A stretch of 64,000 nt of DNA from a virus. Of the stretch, positions 25,886-28,260 are shown piece by piece. Made by a program: the position numbers and the translations under genes. How positions within the stretch are numbered: position 1 is the first letter of the stretch; each line of letters opens with the position of its first letter. A model generated the notes under the pieces. That model was not told the origin of the DNA and searched no databases. It saw only the letters and a list, made by a program, of their open reading frames with translations. Where the stretch lies: the IMG/VR virus record IMGVR_UViG_3300031578_000004, positions 32,001 through 96,000 of that record; one strand, given 5' to 3'.

Positions 25886-25947
25886 TATTTTCCCTCGCTT
25901 TCAATTATTTAATTACATATAGTGACACTATTTTATTGAATTGTGAC

Positions 25948-26169
25948 TTAGCTAAAAGCCTTAAAGTGTTCTGCTAATGTTTCGTTTGACATTTCAATCC
26001 AGCCATTCACATCAGATTCTAGTCTAACTTCTCCACCTATAAATCTATAATTTTCATTATCTGGAAGATGCCAAACTGTGCCTTCTTCCACAATCAGATA
26101 CTCATTATCTAAAGTAAAGCCATCGTCGTCACGTTTTTCTAAAGAAAATCCTTTAATACATTCAAACAT
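25948..26169 (-). CDS. Hypothetical protein (cassette-like)
   Basis: GGAGG RBS; stop abuts repeat. Confidence 0.65.
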   Translation of the reverse strand: MFECIKGFSLEKRDDDGFTLDNEYLIVEEGTVWHLPDNENYRFIGGEVRLESDVNGWIEMSNETLAEHFKAFS

Positions 26170-26236
26170 TTTTCAAACCTCCTTTCTTACGACATATTTT
26201 ATTCAGTAGTTGTATCTACTTCTTGAATTGTGCAAC

Positions 26237-26311
26237 TTATCTGCTCATACCTAGTGCCATAGCTGTTGCCCCTAATATCATACCTATTATTAATATCAAA
26301 ACACCTTCCAT
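26237..26311 (-). CDS. 24-aa hydrophobic peptide (cassette-like)
   Basis: MEGVLILIIGMILGATAMALGMSR, GGAGG RBS, fills the space between two repeats. Confidence 0.55.
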   Translation of the reverse strand: MEGVLILIIGMILGATAMALGMSR

Positions 26312-26369
26312 TCAATATCCTCCTTCGCATTTTATTCAGATAGTGACACTATTTTATTGTGATGCGACA

Positions 26370-26630
26370 CTATCCTTCATTTGAAACCCTTATTGCAACT
26401 TGCTCTAATGCTTCAACTTTATCAAAAGTATCTGTTTCGTAGAAATTAAATAAGTGTATTTGGTTTTCGCCTTTACTTTCGTATATCTGATAAAGTTTTA
26501 CCGTATACCCCTTGCGACTTATTTCAAGAGATAGATGCAGTTTCACTTCTTTTGCAAGGTCTTTATTTTTAATTGTATTTGTTTCAATCCAAACCCATAA
26601 ACCACAAAATGTTAATTTATTAAAGTCCAA
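26370..26630 (-). CDS. Hypothetical protein (cassette-like)
   Basis: GGAGG RBS; stop abuts repeat. Confidence 0.6.
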   Translation of the reverse strand: MDFNKLTFCGLWVWIETNTIKNKDLAKEVKLHLSLEISRKGYTVKLYQIYESKGENQIHLFNFYETDTFDKVEALEQVAIRVSNEG

Positions 26631-26712
26631 TTTATCCCTCCTATCGTTTTGTTGCCCTTAACAATACGTCGCATTTTATTCAGATAGCGACACTATTTAA
26701 TTGAAATGTGTA

Positions 26713-26865
26713 TCAATCTTTCATATCTTTGTGGTCATTGCATGATTCGTCTGATTCTGTTTTCTCTTTCAAAACCGGGCAATATCCATATCCATCATCT
26801 TTGTCTTGCCAATGTTCACAACTACTACACGTTGTAAATTCATACCTGTATCTTTTCCTTTTCAT
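26713..26865 (-). CDS. 50-aa Cys-rich protein (cassette-like)
   Basis: MKRKRYRYEFTTCSSCEHW..GYCP..SCNDH; stop abuts repeat. Confidence 0.5.
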   Translation of the reverse strand: MKRKRYRYEFTTCSSCEHWQDKDDGYGYCPVLKEKTESDESCNDHKDMKD

Positions 26866-27330
26866 CCCTTCACTTCCTTATGGCACAGTTTATTCAGATA
26901 GTGTCCTTAAAACTGTTTTTGCATATTTAGGAAATACATAAAATGTATCTGGTAAATGATTTTTCATATTAACTCGCCTTCCCTTTCTTAACATTCTTAT
27001 TCTTATCGACCACAAATTCTAACACTTTTTCAGTATTAATATCTATAAATTTTTCTATCAATGTATCTGATGGTAATTTACCATAATGTTCTTTGTACCA
27101 TGCTTTGTAGTCTTGTATAGTCATTGTCATATAATTTTTCACTACCTCCTTATTATATTGGCTTAAACTTTAATATATGACCTTGCAGAGCCATCTAGTG
27201 ACTCATTTGGAGTGTTTACATTAAACTTTTGCTGATAACTTTCCAATGAGTTTTCATCTTTTTGATATTGTAGCCAGTCAGCACTTTCTGATTTGAATGT
27301 TCTCATTTTTATTTATTCCTCCTTCTATTT

Positions 27331-28260
27331 TTATATATTTGATATTATACTACTTAATGGATTTGAATTAGCAACTTTTCTTTGTTGTTCTTTGTCGATA
27401 TGTGTATAAATTTGCGTAGTTGAAATATTACCATGCCCCAATGCTTCTTTTACTGCAATAATATCCCCACCATATTTATACATTAGCGTAGCTGCTACGT
27501 GCCTGAGGGAATGTGTAGAATATTTTTCTGTATCTAATCCTGCTTTCCCTATATAATTTTTAACAAGTGTATAAACTGATTTATCACTAATTCTTTCTTT
27601 TATTTCACTTAAAAATAATGCTTTCTCATTTACTTGCGGTCTTACTTTTAAATACTTTTCTATTGCCGATAAACAAGCAGGAGTTAATATTACAGTTCTC
27701 TCCTTATTCCCCTTACCTATAACTGTCAATAAATCACCTTTAATATGGTCTATATCAATTAAGGTCATTTCCTTACGTCTTAAACCACAATTAAGAAATA
27801 TAGTTAATATGGCATAATCACGTTCTTTGTTTCTATTGTGATTATTTTTCTTGTTAACACTATTTAATAACTTTATAGATTCTTCTAAATCAAAATATAC
27901 AGGTTTTCTTTCAGGTATCTTCGGAGTTTCCATATCCAAAGCAGGATTAACTATAATAACTTTAATCTTTGTTATATACTTAAAAAACTCTCTTATACTT
28001 GTTGTCTTTCTTGCTCTAGTGCTTTCAGCTTCTTCTTTGCCTGTTAGATAGTTCATGTAAAATTCTAAGTCTTGATATTCTATTGAATTAAAAAACTCCT
28101 TATCAAATGTATTTATGGATGCTGTCAGATTCTTGTTTTCTCGTATATAGTTAAGTAATTGAACATTATCTATCTCATAGCTGTTAATCGTGTTCTGTGA
28201 CCTTCCTTTTGATTTTAAGGCTAGAAGGAAATTATTGAGTAGACGGTTATTAGTTTTCAT
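27331..28260 (-). CDS. XerC/D-like tyrosine recombinase, intact
   Basis: GLR, GKGNKER, HSLRH, LGH and TQIY catalytic set complete. Confidence 0.92.
   Translation of the reverse strand: MKTNNRLLNNFLLALKSKGRSQNTINSYEIDNVQLLNYIRENKNLTASINTFDKEFFNSIEYQDLEFYMNYLTGKEEAESTRARKTTSIREFFKYITKIKVIIVNPALDMETPKIPERKPVYFDLEESIKLLNSVNKKNNHNRNKERDYAILTIFLNCGLRRKEMTLIDIDHIKGDLLTVIGKGNKERTVILTPACLSAIEKYLKVRPQVNEKALFLSEIKERISDKSVYTLVKNYIGKAGLDTEKYSTHSLRHVAATLMYKYGGDIIAVKEALGHGNISTTQIYTHIDKEQQRKVANSNPLSSIISNI

Follow-up and report, generated by a model that had tools for sequence, protein, structure and literature searches.

Nine copies of an intergenic linker join small accessory genes in a large phage and may be sites of cassette exchange

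Why does a large phage carry copies of one short repeat between its small genes, with one row of copies lying beside an intact tyrosine recombinase? The question is raised by a 64,000-nucleotide stretch of DNA (the window) that comprises bases 32001-96000 of the 130,358-bp virus record IMGVR_UViG_3300031578_000004 (28% G+C; estimated completeness 78%). The region encodes both phage and plasmid-like functions, and the host is probably a spore-forming Firmicute because a homologue of SpoIIID is encoded at 28785-29045. Since nearly all genes from position 1 to ~45000 of the window lie on the minus strand, the arrays of repeats, here called linkers, are read on that strand. An initial annotation, made from the sequence alone, had described these repeats as part of an integron-like array, and had suggested that they form a phage system for capturing and shuffling gene cassettes with its own family of sites.

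We found nine copies of an intergenic element of 43-52 nucleotides. All are in the coding (minus-strand) sense, lie in the gap from a stop codon to the following ribosome-binding site, and fall into two small-gene islands at window positions 12578-14012 and 25905-26922. The nine places named in the initial annotation (25915, 26191, 26326, 26670, 26884, 12607, 13018, 13241 and 13967) do represent one repeat family. A profile hidden Markov model (HMM) built from the nine copies (alignment A1) recovers exactly these nine in the whole record (E 6.2e-13 to 1.1e-5), and the next matches, which include opposite-strand self-matches of the palindromic copies, have E values of at least 0.63. A 24-mer searched with up to three mismatches yields 3 matches versus 0 in 100 shuffles, and fuzzy scans for both conserved blocks return copies on the minus strand only and in two clusters only. 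When intergenic 11-mers containing three or more G or C are counted, a single word other than ribosome-binding sites reaches four copies or more, and it belongs to the linker family. The copies, with a probable shortened linker and a short remnant, are as follows.

13965-14012, minus strand: R1, long-form linker with block A, the 13-bp palindrome and block B (profile E 3.3e-11)
13593-13601, minus strand: short remnant past the stop of the 114-aa gene (contig joint and loose end)
13232-13276, minus strand: R2, short form with block A, the right palindrome half and a block B variant, directly after the TAG of the 98-aa gene (E 7.5e-8)
13010-13053, minus strand: R3, short form; the upstream 62-aa open reading frame (ORF; 13030-13218) ends at a TGA inside R3
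12578-12629, minus strand: R4, palindrome halves split by 10 nucleotides, after the methylase remnant at 12630-12728 (E 1.1e-5)
26880-26922, minus strand: R9, short form whose block A has diverged, and the linker closest downstream of the recombinase (E 9.2e-6)
26668-26712, minus strand: R5, long form with a one-mismatch palindrome, after the TGA of the 50-aa gene (E 6.2e-13)
26323-26369, minus strand: R6, long form, with a joint at 26368 (profile and contig joint)
26192-26236, minus strand: R7, with a different inverted repeat and a block A identical to that of R4 (profile)
25905-25947, minus strand: R8, long form with a diverged block B, with a joint at 25939 and a loose end at 25943 (profile and contigs)
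25603-25627, minus strand: probable shortened linker, block A only, after the 85-aa gene and bordering the MazF-like gene (seen by eye, missed by the profile)

The linkers are composite. Block A, (T)TGCACAWWTCAAGAA, starts 0-2 nucleotides past the stop codon in six of the nine copies (R2 and R4-R8). R1 begins a few nucleotides past the stop of a 9-codon mini-ORF, and at R3 and R9 the upstream ORF enters the repeat and terminates at a TGA or TAA within block B. The middle part is variable: a 13-bp palindrome, ATAGTG-T-CACTAT, occurs without mismatch in R1, R6 and R8 and with one in R5; R7 carries a different 5-bp inverted repeat with a 6-nucleotide loop; R4 has the two palindrome halves set apart; and R2, R3 and R9 retain the right half only. 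Block B, CACTAT(C)TGAATAAAAT, is often followed by GCGAAG. The next ribosome-binding site begins ~3-35 nucleotides beyond the linker end, stop-to-start spacers measure 49-103 nucleotides, and the end of block B lies a variable distance of ~17-46 nucleotides ahead of the start codon.

The initial annotation had the repeats starting at or overlapping a stop codon and ending shortly before a ribosome-binding site. This holds for the ends of all copies and, at the other side, as a start 0-2 nucleotides after the stop in six copies and an overlap with the ORF end in R3 and R9. The central palindrome that it assigned to most copies is present in four of nine overall and in three of the five copies in the 25915-28260 span that it described, and the bulged outer arms TCGCAT/ATGCGA, given as a common feature, occur only in the copy at 26326 (R6). 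One gene per repeat is an accurate description of the 25.9-26.9 kb island and fails in the 12.6-14.0 kb island, where two intervals hold two ORFs or a gene remnant. The two islands have linker subtypes in common: similarity scores of R1 are 36 with R5, 29 with R6 and 27 with R8, versus 12-15 with its own neighbours R2-R4, and R4 and R7 have an identical block A, although the islands lie 12 kb apart.

The genes joined by the linkers, and the recombinase upstream of one island, are listed here.

13602-13946, minus strand: 114-aa cassette gene (33 homologous protein clusters; raised contig depth)
12372-13573, minus strand: cassette genes of 98, 62, 62 and 60 aa and a methylase remnant (no homologue in the nearest relative, G001)
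25948-26865, minus strand: cassette genes of 73, 24, 86 and 50 aa, one per linker (no family above the curated cut-off)
25628-25885, minus strand: 85-aa cassette gene (no Pfam family, no PHROG)
27331-28260, minus strand: Xer-like tyrosine recombinase, 309 aa (domains, models and structure alignment)

None of the genes between linkers exceeds a curated family cut-off, the 50-aa gene giving weak sub-threshold Pfam matches only, and no paralogy was detected among the proteins that flank linkers. For R6, the downstream gene is most likely a hydrophobic ORF of 24 codons (26237-26311) that has a good ribosome-binding site. The methylase remnant (12630-12728, minus strand), a 32-codon ORF that abuts R4, corresponds to the last 25 positions of the N6_N4 methylase profile (E 6e-4, below cut-off) and resembles the end of an ORF of the same record outside the window (G000 10070-10531). 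The 114-aa gene has 33 uncharacterised homologous clusters with 53-99% identity on contigs of up to 397 kb. It is under purifying selection, since a 324-nucleotide contig across it has four differences and all of them, as counted from the contig table, are at third codon positions. A single-protein search with the 114-aa and 85-aa proteins returned no IMG/VR locus, and neither was found in GenBank phages.

A further homologue of the 114-aa gene (55% identical) is present in a row of small genes at 3676-3996, plus strand, of a 60-kb IMG/VR contig of higher G+C content. This homologue and the gene preceding it each stand behind a related G+C-rich linker, composed of a hairpin and ribosome-binding site, that is unrelated to the window linkers. 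Its two copies fold at -17.2 and -16.4 kcal/mol, and their stems differ by paired changes. That this contig has a linker family of its own fits the idea of such genes travelling between phages, each with its own linkers.

The window linkers themselves were not encountered elsewhere. An exact 22-mer of the repeat has 0 loci in IMG/VR, and blastn of 24000-30000 against GenBank phages gave no match. The two-block pattern has 1 IMG/VR locus, a chance match within a coding region of an unrelated contig, and a degenerate 17-mer has 35 loci, all attributed to chance, the best of which reaches a profile score of 13.3 bits versus 22-45 bits for real copies. By these searches, the linker family appears to be found nowhere else in GenBank phages or IMG/VR.

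Evidence that genes are rearranged at the linkers comes from three soil-metagenome DNA runs (X1, X2 and X3) that contain this stretch and whose contigs were mapped to 11000-29500. Two of these runs are possibly the source of the window DNA, so the runs are not independent, and the evidence consists of assemblies and not reads, each joint being one contig per run. The junction results draw on 15 of the 29 joints and 18 of the 760 loose ends, and counts of them are lower bounds. Joints with a side shorter than 30 letters (11864 to 18366, 18318 to 28716, 24759 to 28271 and 17745 to 21724) were excluded as likely repeats or other organisms. Contig depth in X1 is ~24-38 in 27 of the 30 bins. It reaches 206, 213 and 106 (X1, X2 and X3, respectively) over 13468-14084, 95, 98 and 38 over 25191-25807, and 72, 77 and 41 over 25808-26424. 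Because of this raised depth, the 114-aa gene, with ~8-fold higher depth in other genomes of the same samples, and the stretch carrying the 24-, 73- and 85-aa genes are also assigned to other, more abundant genomes.

In the same samples, related genomes have these genes in other combinations, with the joins in or at linkers. For example, at a joint of 25939 to 13593 in X1 (depth 50.3, shorter side 51 letters), the 114-aa gene is followed directly by an R8-type linker and the 85-aa gene. A second joint, 26368 to 25642, is present in all three runs (depth 51.6, 19.7 and 21.2; side of 39 letters, with 8 letters between) and places the whole of R6 behind the 85-aa gene. A loose end at 25943 reveals a different gene upstream of R8, and one at 25603, seen in all three runs, marks where an abundant relative diverges just past the block-A-like remnant behind the 85-aa gene. 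At the loose end at 13593 in X3, 15 of 19 letters equal the plus strand of R6 at 26324-26338, so a linker follows the 114-aa gene there too. Gene gain and loss breakpoints in or at the repeats, as the idea of cassette shuffling had implied, are thus represented by at least two joints and by the loose ends at 13593, 25943 and 25603.

At these junctions, the upstream gene retains block A and the downstream gene retains the middle part together with block B, a pattern that crossovers inside a shared linker produce. A break at 13571 lies at a start codon and not in a linker. The joins are not graph artefacts of the phage's own repeats because the linkers involved have no 31-mer in common; where two linkers do have more than 31 nucleotides in common (R2 and R3), the phage's own contigs break, at 13047 and 13246. 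A loose end at 12674 was not counted, since it lies within the methylase remnant and reads as the conserved end of methylase genes of other organisms.

The nearest relative is a 137,947-bp IMG/VR contig (G001), in which a recombinase homologue (55% identical) is followed by a homologue of the 47-aa gene that follows the recombinase in the window. A 1,195-bp metagenome contig (L003) has the same two genes, with a recombinase 66% identical. These were the one useful IMG/VR locus and the one short metagenome contig recovered for the recombinase, all other matches being 28-32% identical, and no close relative could be aligned at the DNA level. The linker pattern has 0 matches in G001 and L003, the best profile match across all of G001 has an E value of 1.6, and intergenic 11-mers of G001 reveal no analogous repeat family. 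By our own simple gene calls, 60 of the 236 ORFs of the record have a G001 homologue.

Both islands are flanked by anchors conserved in G001 and contain unshared genes only: no cassette gene of either island has a homologue in G001, which has other genes at both places. The 25.9-26.9 kb island is bounded by the recombinase and 47-aa gene at one end and by the MazF-like gene (88.5% identity) at the other, beyond which are genes for a TPR protein (68% identical) and a 122-aa protein (70%). The anchors of the 12.6-14.0 kb island are a 99-aa gene (79% identical) and a 208-aa gene. The MazF/PemK-like protein (218 aa; 24872-25528, minus strand) is about twice the usual length, and its 88.5% identity to the G001 protein compares with 37-70% for neighbouring shared genes. 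No antitoxin partner was identified for it; the TPR protein gene comes after it.

We lean slightly towards the explanation that the linkers are a lineage-specific composite intergenic family that joins small accessory genes, and that cassettes are exchanged at them, probably by general recombination. During co-infection, general recombination (homologous or microhomology) would use the 20-45 nucleotides shared by linkers as its crossover substrate. Units of one gene would thereby be swapped, reordered, lost or shortened, as with the promoter-early stem-loop (PeSL) cassettes of T4-type phages. We favour general or microhomology recombination over one precise site-specific reaction because linker forms and junction positions vary, gene remnants occur, and linker-less relatives keep the recombinase. 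The long, short, split and remnant linker forms, together with the methylase remnant, are as expected from imprecise recombination. More tentatively, a linker may also have a role in expression of the downstream gene, as a leader, a protein-binding palindrome or a phage-specific promoter element.

Several observations weigh against this explanation. No gene of the RecA, RecT or ERF families was found in the 78%-complete record, so host recombination functions would be needed. Three continuations meet at exactly nucleotide 13593, where two kinds of contig continue with repeat sequence and the window continues to the 98-aa gene. The joint of 26368 to 25642 could equally come from a circle, a tandem copy or a different gene order. 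Support for the rearrangements is drawn from contigs only, each joint being represented by one contig per run and the runs being partly non-independent, and the presence of the islands in unshared regions is weak evidence because only 60 of 236 ORFs are shared with G001. The proposed role in expression is opposed by single-strand folds that are no better than shuffles in eight of nine copies, by the finding of no Rfam family at the linkers at E ≤1 in a search of the region, and by the variable distance to the start codon. In a scan of 11000-30000, no sigma-70-type site was present on the minus strand at any copy among the 60 sites listed. A three-frame stop function was also considered and is not distinctive, being seen in six of nine copies versus 17 of 50 control spacers.

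The alternative that fares best, itself unlikely, is that the linkers are DNA control sites. The palindrome or its half-sites would be operators, for example for the SpoIIID homologue, or block B would be a promoter for a phage-modified polymerase, and each cassette would be separately regulated. The 13-bp palindrome has three perfect occurrences and one with a single mismatch, and no others in 130 kb; the right half-site is retained in eight of nine copies; and the palindrome and block B stay with the downstream gene in the contigs, as expected of 5' control elements. SpoIIID-family and other helix-turn-helix (HTH) genes lie nearby, and by direct reading block B contains a -10-like hexamer. 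However, direct reading also finds no -35 element and a TG that is off by one base, and no sigma-70-type site is listed there. No gene with a Sigma70_r2 domain was found, half-site spacing is altered in R4, and three copies have lost the left half.

Sigma-70-type sites in 11000-30000 total 120 versus 124.4 expected, and no intrinsic terminator was predicted at linkers in the scan of that interval. The combination of a sigma-70 promoter and an intrinsic terminator was rejected as the linker function because neither is predicted at any copy, and the linker appears from these predictions to be neither a host sigma-70-type promoter nor a terminator. An antisense promoter on the plus strand was rejected by reading, as only R1 has a usable second hexamer. 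A match of the palindrome to the SpoIIID binding preference was unconvincing and was not used. The SpoIIID homologue (86 aa; 28785-29045, minus strand; PF12116, 107.3 bits) is encoded ~500 bp upstream of the recombinase and has no G001 homologue; a possible function, suggested by its family, is interference with sporulation control.

Expression signals are predicted at other places in the window. There are perfect sigma-70-type sites at 23654, 21237 and 16817 and, at 24155-24186, a strong bidirectional terminator. The gene run of the 25.9-26.9 kb island is downstream of an extended -10 promoter that precedes the recombinase, and that of the 12.6-14.0 kb island is downstream of the perfect site at 16817. 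Near-perfect or perfect sigma-70-type promoters (TTGACA, 16-18 nucleotides, TATAAT-like) with conserved flanks were noted at 4813-4868, 8669-8724 and 16785-16840 on the minus strand, and also at 23654-23625 and 21237-21210. They are the likely early promoters for the block of minus-strand genes. On both gene strands, a second repeat family, centred on TATAAAAATAA, is located just 5' of ribosome-binding sites.

3449-3489, 16575-16615, 28278-28318, 30626-30666 and 37003-37036: TATAAAAATAA repeats ahead of minus-strand genes
45608-45637, 48937-48966, 50023-50052, 50861-50890, 51276-51305 and 57510-57539: TATAAAAATAA repeats ahead of plus-strand genes

This second family is probably a phage-specific (middle or late) promoter class. 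It has the letters ACTAT...AATAAA in common with linker block B.

We consider it quite unlikely that the linkers are RNA-level elements, that is, sites for processing, stability or translation control between cistrons, with recombination as a by-product. All nine copies are sense-oriented inside two long same-strand gene runs downstream of promoters, and the phage encodes a MazF-like endoribonuclease and a beta-CASP RNase. Some inverted repeat is found at the same relative place in six of the nine copies. The different inverted repeat of R7, the split one of R4 and the G-U-compatible change in R5 give a weak hint that some pairing is kept; contrary to this hint, one palindrome arm, the left, is missing in three copies. 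Predicted RNA folds of the nine cores range from 0 to -7.4 kcal/mol, with z scores of -1.65 to +1.44 against dinucleotide shuffles, which argues against an RNA element, as do the lack of an Rfam match at E ≤1 and a start-codon distance that is not fixed. Moreover, the MazF-like gene is conserved at 88.5% in G001, which is without linkers.

The integron-like arrangement proposed in the initial annotation is very unlikely by our assessment. It holds that the linkers, as duplex or folded single strand, are recognised by the neighbouring Xer-like recombinase, which would excise and insert single-gene cassettes site-specifically. The annotated enzyme is well described: an intact, XerC-like recombinase with an R-K-H-R-H-Y set does lie ~400 bp upstream of the five linkers on the same strand, the 25.9-26.9 kb array starting 406 bp downstream of it with two genes between. 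It contains catalytic (PF00589, 2.3e-33) and SAM-like core-binding (PF02899, 4.7e-7) domains and aligns to solved XerD (1a0p, E 1.9e-29) over 285 residues with all six catalytic positions kept, namely the arginine, lysine, H-x-x-R, histidine and tyrosine positions. Its model scores are 197.8 bits for XerC, 181.4 for XerD and 175.2 for XerA, and we call it Xer-like only because all are below the equivalog cut-offs (335 for XerC). With the integron-integrase model TIGR02249 it scores 77 bits, in two stretches, versus a cut-off of 265, and with PRK15417 43.3 versus 435. By its alignment and these models, the recombinase is intact and Xer-like and is not an integron integrase.

Other observations fit site-specific capture. 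The cassettes consist of single genes that share one orientation, the linkers are without a sigma-70-type promoter, three continuations meet at nucleotide 13593, the joint of 26368 to 25642 is compatible with a circle, and no general recombinase gene of the three families was found. R6 alone forms a two-tier hairpin with DNA z scores below -2 (-2.21 and -3.06), and this copy has the outer arms. Against these stand the G001 and L003 contigs, which have the same recombinase at the same place and no linkers, and the recombinase bins at 27042-28275, where the high-depth cassette genomes show no extra depth at ≥85% likeness. The recombinase is the only protein with a Phage_integrase domain found in the record, and the 12.6-14.0 kb island lies ~13 kb from it, with none beside that island; no attI-like site was defined. 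Five of nine copies are without an intact palindrome, middle lengths differ, and the other junctions (25943, 25939, 26368 and 25603) fall at differing linker positions.

The folds also differ from those of attC sites. Predicted single-stranded DNA folds of both strands range from -0.1 to -5.8 kcal/mol with structures that differ between copies, and because only R6 folds below shuffles, the attC-like bulged hairpin appears to describe one copy of nine. The label of fold-back repeats is therefore not retained: eight of nine are no better than shuffles and four of nine have the palindrome intact. The initial annotation had itself remarked that the canonical RYYYAAC...GTTRRRY order is not followed, and by direct reading the canonical attC end boxes are indeed absent.

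Like an integron, the window has a one-orientation array of single promoterless genes, repeats starting at a stop codon, and a tyrosine recombinase beside the array. Unlike an integron, it has a recombinase that fails integron-integrase models and shares the cassettes' strand, repeats without attC end boxes or a stable single-strand fold, a 12.6-14.0 kb array without an adjoining recombinase, and relatives that keep the recombinase and are without repeats. By the features tested here, the linker array does not appear to be an integron. The Xer/dif systems (XerC, XerD, XerA and XerH) offer a closer likeness for the enzyme, which best matches the XerC, XerD and XerA models and solved XerD; unlike in those systems, its score is below the equivalog cut-offs (197.8 versus 335), no dif-like site was identified, and nothing connects the enzyme with the linkers. 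It would be a long shot that the enzyme and the linkers form an integron-like phage cassette system from unrelated parts, using short AT-rich sites without an attC fold, by which genes would move between co-infecting phages of spore-forming soil bacteria. We retain this much probability because no RecA, RecT or ERF gene was found and because of the three continuations at 13593. The proposed phage system for cassette capture and shuffling thus survives in part: the contigs support shuffling at a repeat family of the phage's own, and the integron-like recombinase machine is not borne out.

That the linkers have no function, being recently duplicated relics of one ancestral spacer that are kept only because they are young, is highly improbable: R2 and R3 do have a 35-nucleotide best local match and the family is absent from the nearest relative and IMG/VR, but the flanking genes are mutually unrelated, subtypes are common to islands 12 kb apart, and linkers recur with the same genes in other genomes.

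Returning to exchange by general recombination at the linkers, the closest known parallel is the PeSL cassette of T4-type phages. Two reports describe PeSLs as a strong sigma-70-like promoter with a stable terminating stem-loop, forming small repeats in variable regions where uncharacterised genes are inserted, deleted or replaced and between which mini-circles occur; they identify no dedicated recombinase (Arbiol et al. 2010, PMC2839356; Comeau et al. 2014, PMC4122927). The window linkers likewise are short repeated intergenic modules that flank small uncharacterised genes in variable regions, and relatives differ in the genes present at them. In contrast to PeSLs, the linkers are without a sigma-70-type site and without a stable stem-loop. 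The phages also differ, in that the window phage is not evidently T4-like, its host is probably a Firmicute, and a Xer-like recombinase adjoins one array. On this comparison, the linkers appear to work like PeSL cassettes but fail two defining features, the promoter and the terminator stem-loop.

A second parallel is provided by the start-associated sequences designated SAS and extended SAS in Cluster K mycobacteriophages. These are one-orientation repeats before a subset of non-structural genes; each includes a ribosome-binding site, and its short distance to the start codon is fixed. About half have imperfect inverted repeats upstream with a variable spacer, and they stay with the downstream gene family, with no role assigned (Pope et al. 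2011, PMC3203893). The linkers resemble SAS, as described there, in being same-orientation repeats ahead of genes, in having inverted repeats and in being tied to the downstream gene (PMC3203893). They differ from that description in a start distance of ~17-46 nucleotides, in also abutting the upstream stop, and in showing no sequence likeness (PMC3203893).

Other elements were noted around the islands. A HEARO RNA (Rfam RF02033, 101.8 bits, gathering score 83) is predicted at 19085-19292 on the minus strand; immediately downstream of it is a 440-aa ORF that encodes RRXRR and HNH domains, and the whole element spans 17773-19292. We take this pair to be an RNA-guided nuclease element of the IscB/omega-RNA type, here in the early region of a phage. 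Metagenome contigs show diverged variants of it, and loose ends occur at 18289 and 18323. Among the plus-strand genes, at 60350-60487 on the plus strand, a skipping-rope RNA is predicted (Rfam RF02924, 56.5 bits, gathering score 36.7). A 435-aa protein with a weak match to the DGQHR domain (28.1 bits, below cut-off) is followed by a 318-321-aa protein (21310-22275) that has an MrpR-type core-binding domain and in which no integrase catalytic domain was detected. This pair spans 21310-23589 on the minus strand behind a perfect sigma-70-type promoter, and is conserved and syntenic in G001. An NAD-dependent ligase is encoded in the same early region as the linker islands.

To our knowledge, experimental documentation of repeated linkers that trade single genes is limited to T4-type phages with Gram-negative hosts. 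The environmental contigs, which show the same genes in different orders in co-occurring genomes, now point to the same behaviour in an unrelated large phage, probably of a spore-forming Firmicute, whose linker lacks the PeSL promoter and terminator. If this is confirmed, a short sequence shared at gene borders, and not a particular regulatory content, would be what mobilises small phage genes, and linkers would become handles for finding exchangeable accessory genes, often with defence or counter-defence functions, in metagenomes.

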